A stretch of DNA of 55,008 nt from a virus (taxonomy: Duplodnaviria > Heunggongvirae > Uroviricota > Caudoviricetes): IMG/VR virus record IMGVR_UViG_2925891887_000003. One strand, written 5' to 3'. The notes beneath the pieces were generated by a model. That model ran no database searches and had not been told where the DNA came from. It worked only from the letters and a program-made list of their open reading frames with translations. Shown here piece by piece: positions 3,699-13,615 of the stretch (the first letter of the stretch is position 1; every line of letters starts with the position of its first letter). A program made the position numbers and the translations under genes.

Positions 3699-4232
3699 CT
3701 CGCTACCTCTCTAATATGTTTTCAGTAGTCCGGAGAATTCCATCCGGATTCAGGTAGTTCCTTATTATGTTTATATAAGCGGCTCGCGCATGCTTTATTT
3801 AATTAGAGTGAAATATTGCTTTCTCAAAAAATAAAACAGCTAAAAACCGGATAAAACGGACAAAAACAAATCATTCCTTCATGGAATATAATAAGGAACT
3901 TAAAGAATAAAAAAGTCTATTACACCAGGCAGGATCGCAGCTCAAGCCTGAACCAGACCATATCATTCCGGGCGTTACATCATAAGGACAAAGACGGCAC
4001 CGGAATAATAAAAGGGCCAAAAAACATCCATAAAAAACAGTTCATCATATGTATTAATTAAATTAACGACTAAAAAATTAAATTACCCGCATCCTTCCGC
4101 ATTTATCCGGATGTGTTTAATGAGCATCAGACAGATTCATTTTTATGGATATTTTCTTGAAATGCAACCGAGTGTAGGGAGGTTAAGTTTTGAATTTTCA
4201 AACAGACATAAGACACATTTTATACTGTATAT

Positions 4233-4450
4233 TGAATAGTGTTGAATACGTGTGAATAGTGGTGATGAGTAAAAATCTAGTAATAAACTGAAATAAAGAT
4301 CGCGACTCATATGAAAAACAAATATAAGTTTAAATTTATCTCTGTGAACAGTCATGAACAGTAGATGACCACTTTGATTTAAACACTACACTCCTTAATT
4401 CCATGTATTTACTATTCTTTTATAAAAGTGAACAGTAGTGAATAGTATGT
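4233..4450. repeat. cluster of at least 7 TGAAYAGT-type short repeats (candidate iterons or operator sites)
   Basis: tgaatagtg, tgaatacgtg, tgaatagtgg (4233-4260); gtgaacagtc, atgaacagtag (4345-4365); gtgaacagtag, gtgaatagtat (4429-4450). Confidence 0.5.
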
Positions 4451-4511
4451 ATTAAAGGAAGGGTGAAGATCAGACATGACACCTTTCTCTGGCTAGCCAG
4501 AACAAGGTCAT

Positions 4512-4529
4512 TGTTCAGTCACTGGCACA
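4512..4529 (+). promoter_or_regulatory. TGT-N12-ACA dyad, candidate Ogr/Delta activator site of the late promoter
   Basis: tgt tcagtcactggc aca, ~75-90 bp upstream of the Sid-like start codon; P2/P4 late promoters carry a TGT-N12-ACA element near -55. Confidence 0.4.
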
Positions 4530-4601
4530 ATCCTCATCGGTAGTGCGCTTGTATGGGCACCGGCACAATTGACTCAACAACAAAACACTACCGGAGCAGC
4601 C

Positions 4602-5354
4602 ATGACAACTGTTAACCAGATCCCTGATGTAAACATTACACCTTCCCTCCCGCCGAAAATTCGCGAAGCGGTAGAAAAAGTTAAAGCAGCAAAAGCTGTC
4701 TGGCAGGAAGAACGGCGAAAACAAACTGAAGCCGCTGCAATGACTGAAACTATCCGTAAACGTCAGGAAGATACAAAAACGGAGACGCAGGCGCTTAATG
4801 ATGAATGGCGAAACCTGTTTCGTGAGAATCAGGGGAATATGACGCCACGAATGAAAAAACTGCGGGCAGAAATCGCCCTCGGACGCGAAACACTGGATGA
4901 GTTCGAAGATTTGCTGGCAGCTCAGGCCGCAGAAAATGAATTCCTGCCATGGAAAACTGCGGATGCTGCAAACCGCTACATCAGCGAACATAATCGCCTG
5001 ATTGAAACTCATGCAGTGTGGCTCTGGAATGAGTTTATGAAGGAACACGGCCAGAAACTTATTCAGATCCTTGGACTGCTGAAAATGACTCTGGGCCGAA
5101 GCGCATCTTCTGTTATCGGTGTAGTTCATACCGTAAACGACCCCGAAAGTGTGCTGAAGCAATTTATCAGCGAGCAACTCACCACTCCGGCACTGTCCTG
5201 TAACGTATCTTCAACGGATGATATTGCCCTGCCGGGGATCAGCATTTATGCGGACGATAAAGCCATACAGGATGCCAGACAATCACCCAGCCCTGCAGCG
5301 CGTTCCCGGATGCTTAAACAGCGTGACATGGTTAAAGGGGGCGAGAAGGAATGA
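4602..5354 (+). CDS. P4 late-operon protein, possibly Sid-like capsid size determination protein
   Basis: ORF 4569..5354 (TTG); ATG at 4602 with GGAG upstream preferred (250 aa). Predicted helical and charged; first gene of the operon ending in Psu-like and Ogr/Delta genes. Sid assignment is positional only. Confidence 0.4.
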   Translation: MTTVNQIPDVNITPSLPPKIREAVEKVKAAKAVWQEERRKQTEAAAMTETIRKRQEDTKTETQALNDEWRNLFRENQGNMTPRMKKLRAEIALGRETLDEFEDLLAAQAAENEFLPWKTADAANRYISEHNRLIETHAVWLWNEFMKEHGQKLIQILGLLKMTLGRSASSVIGVVHTVNDPESVLKQFISEQLTTPALSCNVSSTDDIALPGISIYADDKAIQDARQSPSPAARSRMLKQRDMVKGGEKE

Positions 5355-5905
5355 ATACCGGAACCATTACTAAGGAAGCTCTCAACGATTACCGCGCGGC
5401 GATAAAAAGCTGGCTGACACTACGTAATGTGCAAAGTACCAGCCAGCTTCGTCTGGCGGCTTTGCTGGATACTGAAGAAAAACCCGCAGCATATGCCAGC
5501 CAACTTGAGGATCTTCGTGAGCATCTTGTACTCCTCGAATGGCAGATTAACTGTGCCGCCCGGGATGGTCTTTATGCTCACCAGATTGTGCTGGAAAGCT
5601 GTGTTACAAGCGCAACTGAAAACTTCATGAGCGAGCATGGTGATGCACTCACTGACGCTCTGGCTCCTTTTCTTTGCGCACCATACGGGCTTGAGGCGGC
5701 AATGAAAATATTACGAACCGCTGTAGCCCGACAAACGGAAGTCCGTACTCCGGTAATTTCAGCAGCATATAAGAGCATTATCGACGAAACCGGATTAACG
5801 GTGGATGCATCAATGCGCGCTGATGCTTCAGCCAGTTTCACCCCGGCACAACATAAAGTTTTCCTGGCCCGCCTTAACCGACTTAATGAAAAAGGAGTGT
5901 GCTGA
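5351..5905 (+). CDS. Psu-like (polarity suppression / capsid decoration) protein
   Basis: 184 aa; ATGA overlap with the upstream gene. Segments ALTDALAPFL and SFTPAQHKVF resemble what I recall of P4 Psu. Moderate confidence. Confidence 0.55.
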   Translation: MNTGTITKEALNDYRAAIKSWLTLRNVQSTSQLRLAALLDTEEKPAAYASQLEDLREHLVLLEWQINCAARDGLYAHQIVLESCVTSATENFMSEHGDALTDALAPFLCAPYGLEAAMKILRTAVARQTEVRTPVISAAYKSIIDETGLTVDASMRADASASFTPAQHKVFLARLNRLNEKGVC

Positions 5906-5906
5906 T

Positions 5907-6179
5907 ATGGCCCTGAAGTGTCCTGAATGTGGCGCGGTCGCTCACGCTAGAACCAGCGCCTATGAAGCTCCGTCGGTTAAACGCTCATGGTATCAGTGCC
6001 AGAGTCTGGAATGTTCCTGCACATTTACCGCACTGGAAAGCGTGGATACGATAATTATGAAGCCTCGGCGCAATGAACAGGCATCAGACAAAGCAAAAAT
6101 GCCGGAAAAACAACAGCAAACTCTCAATCGCTATGGCTCCGCGTCAAAGCTGTCAAACCGTCAGCAAATTCCTGTCTGA
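5907..6179 (+). CDS. Ogr/Delta-family zinc-finger late transcription activator
   Basis: MALKCPECGAVAHARTSAYEAPSVKRSWYQCQSLECSCTFTALESV matches the Ogr/Delta C-x2-C...C-x4-C finger pattern; AAAGGAG RBS 9 nt upstream of the ATG. Confidence 0.85.
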   Translation: MALKCPECGAVAHARTSAYEAPSVKRSWYQCQSLECSCTFTALESVDTIIMKPRRNEQASDKAKMPEKQQQTLNRYGSASKLSNRQQIPV

Positions 6180-6270
6180 TTAGCAAAATACGCCCACGAA
6201 GTCTCGGTCCAGTACCGGGATTTTTTACGCTTTTTCCCTGGCTGGCCTGAGAGCGTATGAGTGCATATCT

Positions 6271-6309
6271 ATGGCGCATGAAAACGCATGAGTCTCATGC
6301 GCCATTTTT
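6271..6309 (+). terminator. intrinsic terminator of the late operon
   Basis: Perfect 11-bp inverted repeat atggcgcatga / tcatgcgccat followed by TTTTT. Confidence 0.6.
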
Positions 6310-6383
6310 GACGCGAAAGCCCTTGTGTGGTGGCTTCTGAGACGATTTAAGGGGTGCATGAAAACCAGTCTGTTAAGCGAAGC

Positions 6384-6407
6384 GGGCAGGCGGGCGGGGC
6401 TGCGCAC
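6384..6407. other. candidate cos (cohesive end) site of the P4-like element
   Basis: GC-rich gggcaggcgggcggggctgcgcac resembles my recollection of the P2/P4 cohesive end (GGCGAGGCGGGGAAAGCAC); sits where cos is expected, between the late operon and the cargo/int region. Not verified by alignment. Confidence 0.3.
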
Positions 6408-6451
6408 GCTGAGGGGAAGTATTGAGATCGGTGAGGGGAAATCTGATTCAT

Positions 6452-6473
6452 TAAAAAGGCCGCTTTCGCGGCC
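6452..6473 (-). terminator. intrinsic terminator ending the reverse-transcriptase operon
   Basis: Minus strand: GGCCGC-GAAA-GCGGCC hairpin followed by UUUUU, ~120 nt downstream of the RT-B stop. Confidence 0.6.
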
Positions 6474-6590
6474 TGTTTAGCTAAAAGGCAATAGTGTGTC
6501 TAAATCGGTCCATCCTCAAAACGTATCGCGAATATCTTTCGGATGAACATTCAAAAGCCGATCTTCCGGTATCTGCTTCAGGTCGAAACC

Positions 6591-8630
6591 TTAGGCATCG
6601 CAACCCTTTAACGAAATTAAAATACTACTATTCATATGCTGTTCGCAACTCTTTTTTATAAAGAACGTGCTCAAGATCAGCATCTCCAGACCAGTTAAAA
6701 AGATTACATTATTTTTTAAAGAATCAATTTCAGAATCAATTACTGCATTCGTAAATCTTTTTTGACCTGTATTTGCTTCGACATATGTTCTATAAATTAT
6801 TCTCTTATGCTTAACTGTAAGATATGGGCACGTCATCATATCAAGGAATAGCATAAATGTTTCAGTGTCTTTTTTTATATCGTTCCGACCACTTATCAAA
6901 CTCTGTATAGCAAGGACAATATCTTCTTTCATTTTTAGATAGAGAACATCATCGCCTATATAGTGTAACATGCTGCATATAGAAAAATATTCTAAATCGT
7001 AAAAACACTCATTCTCACTAATACCCAACAAATCCTTAAATTCATCTGGATTGAGTTTATACTGCTCCCCCAAACCTTTCATACATATAAGTAAGTTAGA
7101 TAACTCCACTGGCCTCTCATGAATATTACCCATGCTTTTCATGCACATAAGAAGCTCATCAAAAGTATTCTTTTTTATAACTTCACTAATGTCTGAAGCT
7201 TGCTTATTAGCAAATGAATTTATTTCCAAAATAACTTGGCTAATTATGTATGTCTGTCGGACTCGAAAATCCATAGCATAAATAAAAAAAATCACCTCAT
7301 TGAATATTGAGAAGAATTTATAAGTTATATCTTCTTTTCCTGACAGATCGAACATCCTCAACAGCCTAATTACTTTGAAAAACTTACTCTTAATCGCACT
7401 TATTAAGTATGAGCTAACAAGATCAAATGTGGTATTGTTTTTTCTAACCGCAATTTTGATTCGTTTTATAAATTTGTCCGCGTGTAGCTTTTTATTCCAT
7501 ACACCTTTCAATGGAAAAAGGTTATTCATATTTTCAGGCTGAATTTTGACGTCTGGATTTAAATTAACCATAGCTGTTAACTCATCCAACTTCTCAGTAT
7601 GGATTAACGATCCATATAAATCCTCAATGATTTCTGCAATATCATTTTTAGCCATCGTGGCTCCAGTCACGAATGGCCTCTCGATAAATTCCTTTTTAGA
7701 TTCATTCAAATAAAGCTTATATTTTTCGAGTTCATTTGCCAGTACAAATTCTATTAGCTTAAATGTTTCATCATCATCCGCAAATATAAAATAATCATCA
7801 ACGTAACGTCTTATAGCATAGCTCTTATCTTTAACTATGCCTGGCTCAAGATTCAAATGAGACTCAACATTCAAGTCAACGCGCTGTAATATAATCTCCG
7901 CAAATATCCTTGAAAATTCAGGCCCAATTATTATGCCATTTGTTTCACCATAATTGGCATCTTGAAAAAGCTTATCCAAACAACCTTCAAAGCTGTTATA
8001 AGTTCTATTAACCTTAGAGAATTCTTTAGATTTTACAGCCCATGAAACGCTGTGTGTATATATATGACTAAAACACTTAGCAATATCAAGCTTTAAAAGT
8101 TTCCTAAACTTCCTTTCCAATCTATGAAATTCATATGACTCATAAAACTTATAGATGAAAGGATATTTCTTATATGAAAAATGGGAAGATGAGGAAGTTT
8201 CTTGGGAATCAAAGCCATGATTATGAAATTGTACAAGACCATCTTTTAGATTTATTCTACTTTTTAAGAAGTCCTTTTCGTAATAATAGCTCCCTATTTT
8301 GCTAGGATAACGTAGCGAAAACGGACTTTTTGTACACATATGAACCATCAAATGTTCATACTTATCATAAAAATCACAGATTCTTAACTGCGTTGAAGGA
8401 TGTATAATGCCAAGGCTTCGAGAACTCGCCAGCCCCTTTTTTATTTTATAGGAGTAAGGGATGGTATAAGAATCCAGCTTAAGGCCTTCTGAAAATGTTC
8501 CGGGTAAAACTTTATTTTCAGAAATTAACTTATAGAAACCTTCGTTAGAAAAAAGGATAGGGACTTCATATGGTAAAATATCCGTGAGAAGTACTCTTTT
8601 ATAATCACTCTTCGATATTTTAATTTTCAT
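6591..8630 (-). CDS. reverse transcriptase, large (RT-B; UG/Abi-class defence-type RT with ~390-aa C-terminal extension)
   Basis: 679 aa, ~30% GC. RT motifs: LKLDIAKCFSHIYTHSV (motif A with Asp), NGIIIGPEFSRIFAEIILQRVD (motif B), RRYVDDYFIFADD (motif C, YVDD). GGTGA RBS; start 3 nt after the RT-A stop. Confidence 0.85.
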   Translation of the reverse strand: MKIKISKSDYKRVLLTDILPYEVPILFSNEGFYKLISENKVLPGTFSEGLKLDSYTIPYSYKIKKGLASSRSLGIIHPSTQLRICDFYDKYEHLMVHMCTKSPFSLRYPSKIGSYYYEKDFLKSRINLKDGLVQFHNHGFDSQETSSSSHFSYKKYPFIYKFYESYEFHRLERKFRKLLKLDIAKCFSHIYTHSVSWAVKSKEFSKVNRTYNSFEGCLDKLFQDANYGETNGIIIGPEFSRIFAEIILQRVDLNVESHLNLEPGIVKDKSYAIRRYVDDYFIFADDDETFKLIEFVLANELEKYKLYLNESKKEFIERPFVTGATMAKNDIAEIIEDLYGSLIHTEKLDELTAMVNLNPDVKIQPENMNNLFPLKGVWNKKLHADKFIKRIKIAVRKNNTTFDLVSSYLISAIKSKFFKVIRLLRMFDLSGKEDITYKFFSIFNEVIFFIYAMDFRVRQTYIISQVILEINSFANKQASDISEVIKKNTFDELLMCMKSMGNIHERPVELSNLLICMKGLGEQYKLNPDEFKDLLGISENECFYDLEYFSICSMLHYIGDDVLYLKMKEDIVLAIQSLISGRNDIKKDTETFMLFLDMMTCPYLTVKHKRIIYRTYVEANTGQKRFTNAVIDSEIDSLKNNVIFLTGLEMLILSTFFIKKSCEQHMNSSILISLKGCDA

Positions 8631-8633
8631 GAA

Positions 8634-9830
8634 TCACCAAACCTTATTTATTTTAATAATATCTTCCCGTTTAAAAGAAGACAGTAGCCGTTTTTCAAAA
8701 CCAGCCAAAAATGAGTATTTTTTAGGCGCAGTTAATAAGTTGTGACCTGCTGCTAAAATTTTTCTCCCCACCTCGCCCTTTGAAGAAAATAGCATCCTAT
8801 TCTTAAATATATCAAGTTCCTTGAGCTGTGTTTTATCAGTTATATGTTGATAATTGTAATAAATTCCACTATATAAAGCATCAGTTTTATTACTATTGGA
8901 GTTTACTAATATATTACCAGTTAAATACTTTATTCTTTTCTTCAAGAGTTCTGCATCAGAATTATTTGAGTAATCTTTTACCGCAAGTGCAATCCTTCTT
9001 TTTATTTTCTTTATTTTCTCCTCCGAAATTCTGATCACAACATGACGACGCTGATTTTTTAATCCATGGTGTATAATAAATGAATATCCCAAAAACTCAA
9101 TTTCAGAATGTTTAGTTGAAGTGTCCTCTATGGTATACTCACTGCACTTTCTTTCATTTAAATGTAATCCATTTGGTAAAATCCTTGAAAAATAATTTTT
9201 ATAATCTGGTATTTTATAGAATGAAAAAACTATGATATCATCCACATATCTTGAAGCATAAAAAACTTCAGGCAGCCTCGCCAACTCAGCATCAAATTCC
9301 TCCATAAATATTTCTGATAAAGTCGCACTTAATCCCATACCACGGGGAAGTCCGTTATTTGCAGAGAAAGCGTTATGTTTAAAAAGACCATTGATAAATT
9401 TTTTAGTATTATGAGAAATAATCGGGTTATTATTAATTCTTTGGAAAACGATATTTTTATCTATTGATTCATAAAAACTCTTAATATCCAGCCTGTAAAT
9501 ATAATAATTTACAGGCTCACTTAACACTGTATTTACTTTTTTTATGATGTCATGTCTGTTGTTTTGTTTAACACTATACACACGCTTAATGTTATCATTT
9601 ATTTTCCTGGCGACAAGTACATCCATAAAATCTTTAAATATATACACATTTTTGTTGTTAATTCTTGAATTTGAGATCGAACCAAATGAGTATGTTTCAA
9701 TTGAGCCATTAACTTTATCAGCTATATATTTTTTATATTCAGCTGAATTCCTACCAATTTTGTATCTTTTTGGATCGGTTTTTTTTAAAAGCTTAATTAA
9801 GTTCGAAACGGAAAATGACTGGTTTAACAT
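8634..9830 (-). CDS. reverse transcriptase, small (RT-A; UG/Abi-class defence-type RT)
   Basis: ORF track starts at GTG 9863 (overlapping int); ATG at 9830 with AAGGGG RBS preferred (398 aa). Motifs: YRLDIKSFYESID (A), GLPRGMGLSATLSEIFMEEFD (B), YASRYVDDIIVFS (C, YVDD). AT-rich. Confidence 0.85.
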   Translation of the reverse strand: MLNQSFSVSNLIKLLKKTDPKRYKIGRNSAEYKKYIADKVNGSIETYSFGSISNSRINNKNVYIFKDFMDVLVARKINDNIKRVYSVKQNNRHDIIKKVNTVLSEPVNYYIYRLDIKSFYESIDKNIVFQRINNNPIISHNTKKFINGLFKHNAFSANNGLPRGMGLSATLSEIFMEEFDAELARLPEVFYASRYVDDIIVFSFYKIPDYKNYFSRILPNGLHLNERKCSEYTIEDTSTKHSEIEFLGYSFIIHHGLKNQRRHVVIRISEEKIKKIKRRIALAVKDYSNNSDAELLKKRIKYLTGNILVNSNSNKTDALYSGIYYNYQHITDKTQLKELDIFKNRMLFSSKGEVGRKILAAGHNLLTAPKKYSFLAGFEKRLLSSFKREDIIKINKVW

Positions 9831-9831
9831 A

Positions 9832-11010
9832 TTATAACCCCTTTTTTTTGCGAAGATAATCACTGTACCATTGCATCATCTTCTGCCTTTCCATAAGGTA
9901 TATGGCATGATTATAAGTTCCTCTTATATTATTTCTATCAACATGAGCTAATTGGACTTCAATAAATGCTGATTGAAAACCTTCTTCATGCAAAATTGTT
10001 GATAACATATGTCTGAACCCGTGACCAGTGAGTCGGCCTTCGTAACCGATACGCTTGATAACTTGATTTATGCTAGCTTCGCTCATCGGTTTGTTCGGAT
10101 CGTTCCGTCCTGGAAAAACATAACGATAGTTCCCTGTCATTATCTTGAGTTCATGGAGTAAATCTAACGCTTGGGTCGACAATGGCACAAGATGCGGCCT
10201 GCGCATTTTCATCCTTTCAGCAGGAATTTCCCAAATAGCGTTATCCAGATCAAATTCTTGCCATAATGCCGCGCGTAATTCGATGGTTCTCACGCCCGTA
10301 ATCATCAGTAATTTCGTTGCTATCTGGACAAGCTTACTCCCGGTGTAACTCTCTAAGGCACGCAGAAATTCGGGTATCTCATCAGCTTTTAGGAACGGGA
10401 AATGATTGGATTGGTGCACTTCGAGAGCGCTGGAAAGATCTGCCGCAGGATTGTACTCCGCTCTACCCGTTGCAATTGCGTAGCGAAACACTTCAGAGCA
10501 ACGCTGACGCACTTTCCGCATTTTCTCCAACGCACCACGTTTCTCAATTTTACGCAGTACGTTCAGCAGCTCTAGCGGTTTAATCTCACTCACAGGCCTT
10601 GTTCCAACATAAGGAAAAATGTCGTTCTTAAACGCTTCCATGATGTCTGATGCATATCCTGCCGACCATTTAGCAGATTTAAGTTGATGCCACTCTCTGG
10701 CTATCTTTTCGAAGGCGTTCTCTGACTCTGCTTGCAGAGCCAGCTTTTGCTCTTTTCGAACATCACTAGGGTTCTTTCCTTCTGCCACAAGTTTTCGAGC
10801 TTCATCACGACGGGAACGAGCATCGGCAAGAGTGATCGTTGGGTAAACGCCAAGCGAGATCATCTTGGGTTTACCGGCATAGCGATAGCGGAACCGCCAG
10901 CTCTTGCTTCCATTAGGTTCTATAAGCAATGACAAGCCTTGCCCATCCCCAAGCGTATAGGGTTTATCTTCAGGCTTAGCGCGGCGAATCTGCATATCGT
11001 TTAAAGGCAT
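9832..11010 (-). CDS. int: P4-type tyrosine integrase
   Basis: 392 aa; N-terminus MPLNDMQIRRAKPEDKPYTLGDGQGLSL... typical of P4-family integrases; C-terminal HGFRHM...RGTYNHAIY catalytic region. Adjacent to the duplicated thrW 3' segment. Confidence 0.9.
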   Translation of the reverse strand: MPLNDMQIRRAKPEDKPYTLGDGQGLSLLIEPNGSKSWRFRYRYAGKPKMISLGVYPTITLADARSRRDEARKLVAEGKNPSDVRKEQKLALQAESENAFEKIAREWHQLKSAKWSAGYASDIMEAFKNDIFPYVGTRPVSEIKPLELLNVLRKIEKRGALEKMRKVRQRCSEVFRYAIATGRAEYNPAADLSSALEVHQSNHFPFLKADEIPEFLRALESYTGSKLVQIATKLLMITGVRTIELRAALWQEFDLDNAIWEIPAERMKMRRPHLVPLSTQALDLLHELKIMTGNYRYVFPGRNDPNKPMSEASINQVIKRIGYEGRLTGHGFRHMLSTILHEEGFQSAFIEVQLAHVDRNNIRGTYNHAIYLMERQKMMQWYSDYLRKKKGL

Positions 11011-11011
11011 G

Positions 11012-11061
11012 TGTATAGGAATCCATGACCGAACAGGAACATATACACAATCCTATACACA
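11012..11061. promoter_or_regulatory. 10-bp perfect inverted repeat just upstream of the int start codon (candidate operator or Int binding site)
   Basis: gtgtatagga ... tcctatacac separated by 30 bp. Confidence 0.3.
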
Positions 11062-11172
11062 TTCTTTATCGGATTCTACTGGATGGCTGCGGACGATGAT
11101 GGACTAAAAAACGGTAAAATCGTTATAAATCAGGGTATTTATGGATGAATACGGACATTTGGGGAAGTTGAG

Positions 11173-11219
11173 ATGGTGCCGATAATAGGAGTCGAACCTA
11201 CGACCTTCGCATTACGAAT
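11173..11219. repeat. att site: 47-bp duplicate of the thrW 3' end, junction between the two tandem elements
   Basis: atggtgccgataataggagtcgaacctacgaccttcgcattacgaat is identical to 53564-53610, which overlaps the 3' end of the intact tRNA. Confidence 0.85.
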
Positions 11220-11295
11220 TATAAGAATCCACTTCTAATTCAAAGCATTACCCCATCAACACTGCGCTCACACGTCCCACCACATCAAAACATGT

Positions 11296-11353
11296 AAAGC
11301 CTTGCAAGCCATTGCGAGGCCTTATGTGTCTCAGTTTTGTCCCACCTTGTATT
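11296..11353 (+). repeat. ~58-bp direct repeat, copy A (near the prophage end)
   Basis: aaagccttgcaagccattgcgaggccttatgtgtctcagttttgtcccac...; near-identical copy at 20129-20186; contains an internal hairpin GCCTTGC / GCGAGGC. Confidence 0.7.
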
Positions 11354-11568
11354 ACGACTTGCATAGCCAATGAAGATAAACGTGACGACAAACGGCGCAG
11401 CAGTCTTCTTTTCCTTCATACTTTCCCCACCCAGCATGCATACCTTTATGCCATAACTGAAGTTTATGTCTGTTATGAGCGAATTGCAGACATTAACGTT
11501 TGGTTAAGGGACGGGCTGTAGCCCGTCCCAGTGAGCGAAGCTTAATTTAGTCCGTGTGCAGCGCTTTG

Positions 11569-12999
11569 TTAGCCAAAACTGATGTGATTTTTAGTTAGAT
11601 CTCTATATCTCTTATCGTTGTGTACTTTATGGAGGATCGTTTGGTTGGCGATCAAAAAATCTATAATTTCTTGAATTCTTTCGCTACGAGCATTGGCTCT
11701 TAACAAAGTCAAAACGCTTACCATATGTTGCTGGCAGTATTTGTTGTCTAAATTCACTCGCACTTCATTAGAGTGCATTGCTATAACTGTATTGATAATG
11801 TTTTGATCGCCAAGCATGCCAAAAAACTGATCATACAAAGGTCGTCCCGCCGGAGAAACACCAGTATTATATGGTATTCCTTTACCAACACGACAAATCA
11901 AAACTGTTTTTATAAGCTTATGAACCCTCTCTAAAGGTATGTCATTTTCAGTCTTTAAATACGAAAGAATCTTCCGCATATGAGGGGGTTCATTATAAAA
12001 GTTATCCCAAGCATACCTAGCCTCTAAGAGATCGTCGGCATGGCCGTCCAGTGATATAATTCTAGAGTCTAATGATTGATAACGATTACCATCACAAAAC
12101 GTAAAAAACTCAATACCTAAAGCATGTTTCTCGTTGTGAAGATTGTTCTTGTATCCGTCTAGCGTCACGCCGAGCTTGTATTTTACGTTATCACTGCTTT
12201 TATTCCAGATATGCGGAGCAAAAAGAGCGATATTTTTTCTGACAACATTTCCTGTTGAATCAGCTGTATATATGCCGAAAATACTATTGAGTAGATTGTC
12301 AGTATTCTGAAGCGACAGATCATTCAAAGGTCTTTCCATGCTATGAATTGTGGCTTCATCAAGAACATCAGTGGATCTTTTTAGATTCTCAAGGAATGAT
12401 TTTATTTGTATGGCAGACGCGGACGGTTTGTCGTTCAAAATATCTTGAACGCATGTTTGGAGCCAGCCAAGAAGTTCAAAAGCATTTATGGAGTATGAAT
12501 TTGGGTGCGAAGCACCAATGTCATTCCTCATAGTCAATATATGATTGAGCTTGGTGTAAACAACGTCAGATATTAATTCAAGTTTTCGGCAAGTATTAAT
12601 AAGGGTGTTGTCTTTTAAACCAGAAAGATCTTCTTCGGTAGAATAAAGCTCTCTACGTCCTCCTCCAACTGCAGCATCAAAGAACATATCGAGGCCATAA
12701 ACTACTACTTTTTCCCTTAAATTCAGTACAACTTCATTCCAAACATAATTTAACGATGCATCAAATAGTCCTATAGCCGCACCAGCAACGAACTTTGATA
12801 AATATCGAGCATCTCTTTTTACCTCAGCAGGTAAAGAATCTATGAATGTGGGGAGGTTTTTTTCAATAATTTGGCGCTCAGGGAGAGAGGCAATTATATT
12901 TTCGGTCGGCAAACCAAGATAGGATAAATATCCTTCAAATTTTGTTGTATCTGTGGAAAGTACCCCTGTTCCAGGTTTTGCAATCAATTCTGAACTCAT
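11569..12999 (-). CDS. hypothetical 476-aa protein, AT-rich moron at the prophage end
   Basis: Long AT-rich ORF with ATG start; no motif I recognise. Strong 10-bp GC hairpin (11509-11531) downstream. Confidence 0.7.
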   Translation of the reverse strand: MSSELIAKPGTGVLSTDTTKFEGYLSYLGLPTENIIASLPERQIIEKNLPTFIDSLPAEVKRDARYLSKFVAGAAIGLFDASLNYVWNEVVLNLREKVVVYGLDMFFDAAVGGGRRELYSTEEDLSGLKDNTLINTCRKLELISDVVYTKLNHILTMRNDIGASHPNSYSINAFELLGWLQTCVQDILNDKPSASAIQIKSFLENLKRSTDVLDEATIHSMERPLNDLSLQNTDNLLNSIFGIYTADSTGNVVRKNIALFAPHIWNKSSDNVKYKLGVTLDGYKNNLHNEKHALGIEFFTFCDGNRYQSLDSRIISLDGHADDLLEARYAWDNFYNEPPHMRKILSYLKTENDIPLERVHKLIKTVLICRVGKGIPYNTGVSPAGRPLYDQFFGMLGDQNIINTVIAMHSNEVRVNLDNKYCQQHMVSVLTLLRANARSERIQEIIDFLIANQTILHKVHNDKRYRDLTKNHISFG

Positions 13000-13615
13000 A
13001 CGATTATTTCCTTATCTGGTTGAAGGCTAGAGAACAGCTAACGCTTTTAGCAGGGGCGCGACGTTAGGAGCGTCCCATACCTAAACTTGTTAAGGTATTT
13101 GTGAGCAAACGCCACCAGTATTTGGGTTTAGATCCAATACATACTTCATGCGAGTACAACCTATCCCGAATCAAGCAGGAGTCATTTCTCCCGCACTTAG
13201 GGTTTGGACATTTCATGTTCCCTACCCATGGTGAATTCGATTCGTAATGTACGATCTTCATAAAGCCTTAACAATTTAATAGAAGGCTTTTTTGCCCGCA
13301 AGTGGAACATTTTTCTGCCTTCTTTCCTGATCTTTACTCACATCAAACTAACGCTGATATACCTCTATTTCAACAGGTTTTTCTGAAATCAATAAATTTG
13401 CGTCCGGCAAACTTTATACAGCCAGTACGCGAGTTGTTCTTGATTTACTTAAGCTGGACACATGGGAATTATCCAGCGGCTTGTGCTAGTAAAAGAAGAA
13501 ATTATCAGGCATTTACCACAACGCCCAATGCCCGCTTTTGGCACAAAGCAGACGCCCACTCTCACGCGAATGCTTTGCCCTTGACTTGCCAACAACCGTA
13601 TCGCTTGCTCCGCAA

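Follow-up and report, generated by a model that had tools for sequence, protein, structure and literature searches.

A stretch of 55,008 nucleotides from a virus of the Caudoviricetes (IMG/VR record IMGVR_UViG_2925891887_000003), referred to below as the window, contains a P4-like satellite whose integrase gene (int) is followed on the same strand, after a single nucleotide, by two reverse transcriptase (RT) genes. Judged by their identity to described proteins, the two RTs belong to the already characterised E. coli DRT3 anti-phage system. The boundary of the DRT3 cassette lies inside the int open reading frame (ORF), and similarly tight junctions with other cargo recur in relatives of this integrase. 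There is about an even chance that int, drt3a, drt3b and possibly the DRT3 non-coding RNA (ncRNA) form one operon fed mainly from the int promoter (Pint), in which drt3a would use a Shine-Dalgarno (SD) site embedded in the tail of int. The DRT3 system, its mechanism and its hotspot are already published, and the int/drt3a junction is an ordinary operon junction, which refines known biology without adding a new type of system. Neither the close joining of the cassette to int nor the location of its boundary within that ORF was found described in the literature on the P4-like hotspot and DRT3.

The int/drt3a junction and the DRT3 genes

9832-11010, minus strand: int, P4-type tyrosine integrase of 392 aa (Pfam Arm-DNA-bind_3, Phage_int_M and Phage_integrase)
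9828-9858, minus strand: junction, with cassette DNA from ~9858, a run of eight A (A8, 9849-9842), the SD-like AAGGGG (9843-9838), the int TAA and the drt3a ATG
8634-9830, minus strand: drt3a (UG3, class 2 RT), 398 aa; PADLOC Drt3a, 1.5e-154, full length; 397/398 residues identical to EcoDRT3a WP_087902017.1
6591-8630, minus strand: drt3b (UG8, class 1 RT), 679 aa as read here, with a frameshift; PADLOC Drt3b, 5e-218
6452-6612, minus strand: DRT3 ncRNA, 161 nt; 161/161 identical to the EcoDRT3 ncRNA defined by RNA immunoprecipitation sequencing (RIP-seq; Table S3, PMC13174585)

Read on the minus strand, int closes with TAA at 9834-9832, the single base 9831 follows, and the drt3a ATG occupies 9830-9828. 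The drt3a gene in turn ends with TGA at 8636-8634, three bases ahead of the drt3b ATG at 8630. Both gaps had been described in an earlier, sequence-only reading of this DNA, and identical 1-nt and 3-nt gaps are found in the RefSeq annotation of near-identical DNA from PC-NDM34. That reading also preferred ATG 9830 as the start of the first RT, a choice borne out on every side: the alignment to the PADLOC Drt3a profile begins at residue 1, RefSeq places the start at the same codon, the N-terminus of EcoDRT3a is MLNQSF, and the diverged homologues of E. coli F404 and Kosakonia begin at the same residue. A GTG at 9863, listed mechanically as the drt3a start, was rejected as an artefact, since the profile, EcoDRT3a and the homologues all favour ATG 9830. 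The SD-like AAGGGG is located 7 nt ahead of this ATG. Folding of the junction RNA gave no structure beyond that of shuffled sequences (z = 0.11) and no evidence for a coupling hairpin that would mask the SD. A dnaX-type slippery heptamer, A_AAA_AAG, is present in the int frame at 9841-9849.

Three hallmarks of DRT3 are present: a UG3 class 2 RT, a UG8 class 1 RT directly downstream, and a structured ncRNA with an ACACAC template. The template is found at 6499-6494, and an intrinsic terminator hairpin at 6474-6457 is followed by a T-tract. The predicted fold of the ncRNA has an energy of -50.6 kcal/mol (z = -3.6 versus shuffles), and its sequence is 95% identical to that of F404, versus ~82% for its flanks. 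A scan of 4000-13000 against Rfam, which holds no DRT3 ncRNA model, gave no match. In the published system, DRT3a copies ACACAC into poly-(dTdG), while DRT3b makes template-free poly-(dCdA) primed on Tyr666, and the resulting double-stranded DNA underlies abortive infection (PMC13174585). Both syntheses and the anti-phage activity were shown for the near-identical system of E. coli ECOR12, EcoDRT3 (Wang, Yoneyama et al. 2026, PMC13174585). The window shares with EcoDRT3 all but one Drt3a residue, the complete ncRNA and the order int-drt3a-drt3b-ncRNA. It differs in drt3b, which has five T instead of six at 6701-6697 and so lacks the C-terminal tail with Tyr666. The PADLOC match to Drt3b covers only residues 2-648; the canonical stop would be the TAG at 6630-6628, giving 667 aa, and drt3b measures 2004 nt in the RefSeq annotation of near-identical genomes. 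The block of int and DRT3 was found in 12 of 5426 complete E. coli genomes. A scan of IMG/VR for Drt3a returned only two identical loci, and a tblastn search for Drt3a against phages found none.

Cassette boundary and recurrence in relatives

Other E. coli int genes can be aligned with the window down to 9858 only (megablast, query 3559). Int is 41% identical to P4 Int, and this alignment stops at MMQWYSDYL (MMQWW-ADYL in P4), after which P4 continues with an unrelated 34-aa tail. Twelve relatives from other genera, together with the loci of O157, F404 and Kosakonia, can be followed as far as ...MMQWY, beyond which all of them diverge completely. The last ~9 Int codons (9858-9832) are cassette-specific and contain the drt3a SD. 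On the distal side the homology to the satellite backbone resumes at 6418, and the cassette spans ~9858 to 6419.

6300-6418: P4-like backbone, cos-proximal, 95-98% identical in >800 E. coli genomes that lack DRT3; distal cassette edge

The cassette consists of the SD, two genes, the ncRNA and the terminator, with just ~27 nt ahead of the first ATG. It carries a ribosome-binding site but has no room for a promoter of its own. DRT3 systems on Vibrio, Enterobacter and Novosphingobium plasmids are preceded by 320-735 nt of non-coding DNA, a region missing here. Because there is no intergenic space and so little cassette-specific DNA 5' of the drt3a ATG, the drt3a mRNA must start inside int or upstream of it.

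The int gene is also mosaic. Its first 360 nt are 97-99% identical to the relative L001, its last 180 nt only 63-69%. In a comparison with L001, L005, L016 and others, identity to the closest relatives drops from 97-99% at the 5' end to 60-70% in these last 180 nt, and L016, which is distant elsewhere, is the nearest there. A boundary inside the ORF combined with a mosaic 3' end points to cargo swapped by homologous recombination, with the breakpoints apparently anchored in the conserved codons of the catalytic domain.

The recurrence of such junctions was assessed by counting an abutment whenever an ORF of at least 150 aa, taken from its first ATG, starts within 12 nt of a given position. An earlier statistic, which accepted any in-frame start, was too permissive (its control reached 20%) and was replaced. 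Abutting cargo was found in 9 of 34 enterobacterial int relatives, versus 1.3% of random positions and 14.5% of other gene stops at the same loci. Operon-like spacing after int is beyond chance, recurrent but not universal. The cargo ATG is located -8 to +9 nt from the int stop in L001, L003, L004, L006, L009, L010, L012, L016 and L025, and an ABC-3C system follows int after a 3-nt gap in E. coli O157 AR-0429.

Abutting cargo in relatives: DUF4297 (L001); unknown (L003 and L004); another Drt3a (L006); pentapeptide-repeat protein (L009); PtuA/Septu (L010); Drt8 (L025)

Over most of the int-DRT3 block, E. coli F404 is ~82% identical to the window; its junction contains no indel and keeps the 1-nt gap. 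The retention of this gap over ~18% divergence indicates that the fusion is old and stable. Clear terminators just after int were seen in ~4 of 24 non-abutting relatives (L007, L008, L020 and L035) versus none convincing in 10 abutting loci, a difference too weak to serve as evidence. In two of these, the Yersinia relatives L007 and L008, which have no fused cargo, a clear intrinsic terminator lies right after the int stop or overlaps it (locus ~7170-7200).

The defence hotspot of P4-like satellites is the interval from int to psu/delta/cos (Rousset et al. 2022, PMC9122126; PMC13586616), and UG3+UG8 systems have already been listed in such hotspots (Mestre et al. 2022, PMC9226505). The locus described here has the same backbone and the same cargo position, and P4 itself carries cII co-directionally downstream of int. 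P4 and several cloned systems have a spacer between int and the cargo; it measures 66 nt before cII in P4 and, by our own reading of the inserts, roughly 50 to 130 nt in pFR97 and pFR84. Here, in contrast, as in about a quarter of the enterobacterial relatives, no more than 10 nt separate the cargo ATG from the int stop in either direction, and the cassette begins before the int ORF has ended.

A likeness to integrons exists in logic only, as promoterless and swappable cargo would rely on the signals of a tyrosine-recombinase gene. The integron promoter Pc lies inside intI and drives promoterless cassettes. However, intI is divergent from its cassettes, whereas int and its cargo are co-directional here, with the boundary inside the recombinase ORF. 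No attC/attI-type sites were evident at the locus, though no search aimed at attC-like sites was made. The locus does not belong to the integron family.

Transcription of the RT genes

11004-11067, minus strand: control region upstream of int, with arm-type repeats TGTGTATAGGA / TGTGTATATG and an inverted copy TCCTATACACA over the int ATG
9910-9937, minus strand: best sigma-70-like match in the int tail, TAGAAA-16-TATAAT (10/12 match), candidate only
6619-6648, minus strand: candidate ncRNA promoter TTGCGA-18-TATTTT in the 3' end of drt3b, from our position weight matrix (PWM) scan

In the arrangement that we favour, the DRT3 cassette would have entered the 3' end of int directly behind ...MMQWY, and the last Int codons would double as the ribosome-binding site of drt3a. 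The genes int, drt3a and drt3b and the ncRNA would form a single transcription unit ended by the hairpin at 6474-6457, with most drt3ab transcription provided by read-through of the int message. The start of this message would be a weak promoter next to att, on which Int would act as its own repressor by way of the arm-type repeats, as it does in P4. For Drt3a, translation would begin at the SD of its own gene, perhaps with the help of ribosomes that finish int 1 nt upstream. A further supply may come from weak promoters in the AT-rich int tail, and the ncRNA may have a promoter of its own. The gene geometry, the identity as DRT3, the cassette boundary, the recurrence in relatives and the lack of a terminator are shown by the sequences. 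We infer, in this scheme, Pint as the main source of the transcript, autoregulation by Int, and translational coupling.

The layout of the arm repeats, with two direct copies upstream and one inverted over the ATG, matches that of the attP arm repeats annotated at the beginning of P4 int, and 11004-11067 is presumed to be the site of Pint and of Int autoregulation. For P4, PMC2951348 cites Piazzolla 2006 for the repression by Int of its own promoter. When the window is compared with F404, the 100 nt from 11083 to 10984, which cover the int start and the arm repeats, are the most conserved of the block (0.96, with 0.95 for the ncRNA). This conservation does not prove a promoter, since the arm repeats are needed for recombination anyway. 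No minus-strand terminator-like site was found in 9800-10150. Two weak intragenic matches (10947-10931 and 8392-8375) apart, the first terminator downstream of int is the hairpin at 6474-6457.

The published plasmids do not settle this question. The insert of pSL5677 (PMC13174585) starts at window position 11173, right after the att CCA, and takes in int completely. Within the first 399 nt of the insert, the differences from the window are one natural single-nucleotide polymorphism and two TAT-to-TAA changes, the latter being engineered int stops at Y42 and Y44 (window 10885 and 10879). The “native upstream flank” of published EcoDRT3 plasmids is thus int itself, inactivated. The defence-proficient published construct spans att to terminator. 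It cannot separate Pint from an internal promoter, and read-through from the vector may also be a source of its transcript. The supplements of PMC13174585 mention no promoter, and no mapped DRT3 promoter was found in the literature consulted on the system.

Several points weigh against Pint as the main source. No sigma-70 consensus match was found between att and the int ATG (0 found), and none there scored high in our PWM. Two RTs may need more transcript than an autorepressed Pint yields. Furthermore, AT-rich horizontally acquired DNA in E. coli commonly has intragenic promoters. Premature int stops should favour Rho polarity on a Pint transcript, and the defence conferred by pSL5677 despite its early stops is mild evidence for a transcription start further downstream, or else for weak polarity. 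The mRNA is G-rich and C-poor, which would make it a poor Rho substrate.

A sigma-70 promoter within the last ~170 nt of int, such as 9937-9910 with a start near 9903, might instead mainly drive drt3ab, so that defence would be independent of int regulation and int transcripts would add little. We regard this as a serious possibility, although a less probable one than supply from Pint. The match at 9937-9910 is the best to the consensus in 5500-11600 and is located ~75 nt upstream of the drt3a ATG. The int tail is indeed AT-rich, as the sequence-only reading had remarked, with a GC content of 0.33 over the last 150 nt versus 0.47 for the remainder of the gene (~0.30 in the RT genes); exchange of cargo by recombination offers an explanation of this composition that involves no promoter. 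Besides pSL5677, the co-oriented P4 hotspot clones of Rousset et al., which begin at the RGTYNHA motif, defend from “native promoters” (PMC9122126), albeit with a spacer after int, unlike the int/drt3a junction here.

Promoter prediction over the int tail, proposed as a check in the sequence-only reading, does not tell the two routes apart: 9800-10150 holds two sigma-70-like matches versus 1.0 +/- 1.0 expected, which is chance level, and the whole scanned region holds 18 versus 19.1 expected, without excess. The candidate at 9937-9910 ranks only 19th on the minus strand in our composition-corrected PWM, an approximate matrix. Its -10 TATAAT coincides with the Tyr-Asn codon pair in the catalytic RGTYNHA motif, which is conserved, so the protein accounts for the conservation of this -10. 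F404 has lost the -35 (CAAAAA), and the -10 reads TATAAC in the abutting O157 locus and TACAAT in others. Nucleotide conservation of the int tail between the window and F404 (0.77-0.85) is no better than that of neighbouring coding DNA. A perfect TATAAT at 9836-9831, over the int stop, was rejected as a drt3a promoter because the transcript would begin after the ATG. Of the earlier proposal that the RT genes depend on a promoter inside int or on read-through, the point that transcription must start inside or upstream of int holds, while an internal promoter argued from the AT-rich tail is not supported. Sequence alone does not decide between an internal start and read-through, and Pint read-through and an internal promoter may both contribute.

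The abutment might also be an accident of recent insertion or of a miscalled start, with DRT3 silent or driven only by promoters within its own genes, but this is improbable. Copies of the system do decay, as the frameshifted drt3b of the window and other strains with a truncated drt3b or an IS1 in the block indicate. The junction, however, is conserved over ~18% divergence and recurs with unrelated cargo, the drt3a start is backed by the profile, RefSeq and homologues, and the near-identical EcoDRT3 defends when cloned with the same flank (PMC13174585). Even less credible, and rejected, is an Int-Drt3a fusion protein made by slippage at the A8 run or at A_AAA_AAG (9849-9841), for which the abutment would serve. 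The drt3a frame is open back to 9863, and removal of one A would give ...RKKRGYN-MLNQ.... Nevertheless, the DRT3 junctions of F404 and Kosakonia have no A-run, a -1 ribosomal shift at A_AAA_AAG would meet a stop after 5 codons, and EcoDRT3a was purified and active as a 398-aa protein (PMC13174585).

The ncRNA may be transcribed on its own. The candidate promoter at 6648-6619 has a predicted start at ~6612, the very position reported as the ncRNA 5' end (Table S3, PMC13174585). Its -35 region is kept in F404 and Kosakonia, yet it also encodes the conserved C-terminal tail of Drt3b.

Satellite context and fate of the DRT3 copies

11174-11219, minus strand: att repeat, a copy of the 3' end of tRNA-Thr(CGT) (thrW), with its CCA end at 11174; found by megablast to annotated tRNA-Thr (query 4874-4920)
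6697-6701, minus strand: run of five T (T5) in drt3b; six T (T6) in six near-identical loci (L082, L083 and L089-L092)

The surroundings of the junction are P4-like, with alpha primase, Icd-like, Sid, Psu and Ogr/Delta proteins and a cos-proximal backbone, followed by the cargo and int. The P4 core genes stand in conserved order in the RefSeq annotation of the near-identical PC-NDM34 DNA, and a Pfam match to Ogr_Delta was obtained in the window. A complete tRNA-Thr(CGT) gene at 53565-53640 is the sole ARAGORN hit. It is separated from the att repeat by ~42 kb (11220-53640). This interval holds numerous long ORFs, most of them co-directional, and the one next to the tRNA gene (52387-53550) has the size of an integrase gene. 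In strain F404, the satellite directly adjoins the tRNA. We read the region 11220-53640 as a second element in tandem at thrW, probably a prophage. Just beyond the att repeat, an ORF of 476 aa (11569-12999, minus strand), co-directional with int, is annotated as hypothetical in RefSeq and has no Pfam or PADLOC match.

The T6 loci comprise two IMG/VR loci and four RefSeq genomes. Relative to these, the 1-nt deletion of the window replaces the C-terminal tail of Drt3b (...LYKKELRTAYE is lost), so that the priming Tyr666 is missing, and the ORF runs on into the ncRNA as far as 6591. This tyrosine, invariant in DRT3, is missing from drt3b as assembled, and its exchange in Y666F abolishes poly-(dCdA) synthesis and defence against lambda (PMC13174585). 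Either drt3b carries a genuine inactivating mutation here, or the T5 run is an assembly error at a homopolymer. In E. coli CRE10 (L092), drt3b is truncated differently, at 584 aa, and in E. coli MS 145-7 (H48) an IS1 is annotated within the matched int-drt3 block. These damaged copies suggest recurrent inactivation of this DRT3 copy.

A broader scheme, which we offer as tentative and rather doubtful, would be that in one P4-type int lineage promoterless defence cassettes recombine after QWY. Each swap would rewrite the Int tail and supply a ribosome-binding site, and the cargo, including EcoDRT3, would become slaved to a Pint autorepressed by Int. DRT3 currently serves as a model of protein-templated DNA synthesis, and the flank in its standard construct is precisely the one described here. 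The choice between Pint and an internal promoter decides the level of DRT3 in native lysogens, and whether plasmids with an int knockout misreport it. If Pint drives DRT3, plasmids with a nonsense-mutated int would lack Int autorepression, and their DRT3 level would be deregulated. The comparison of these loci also shows how satellites exchange their defence cargo.

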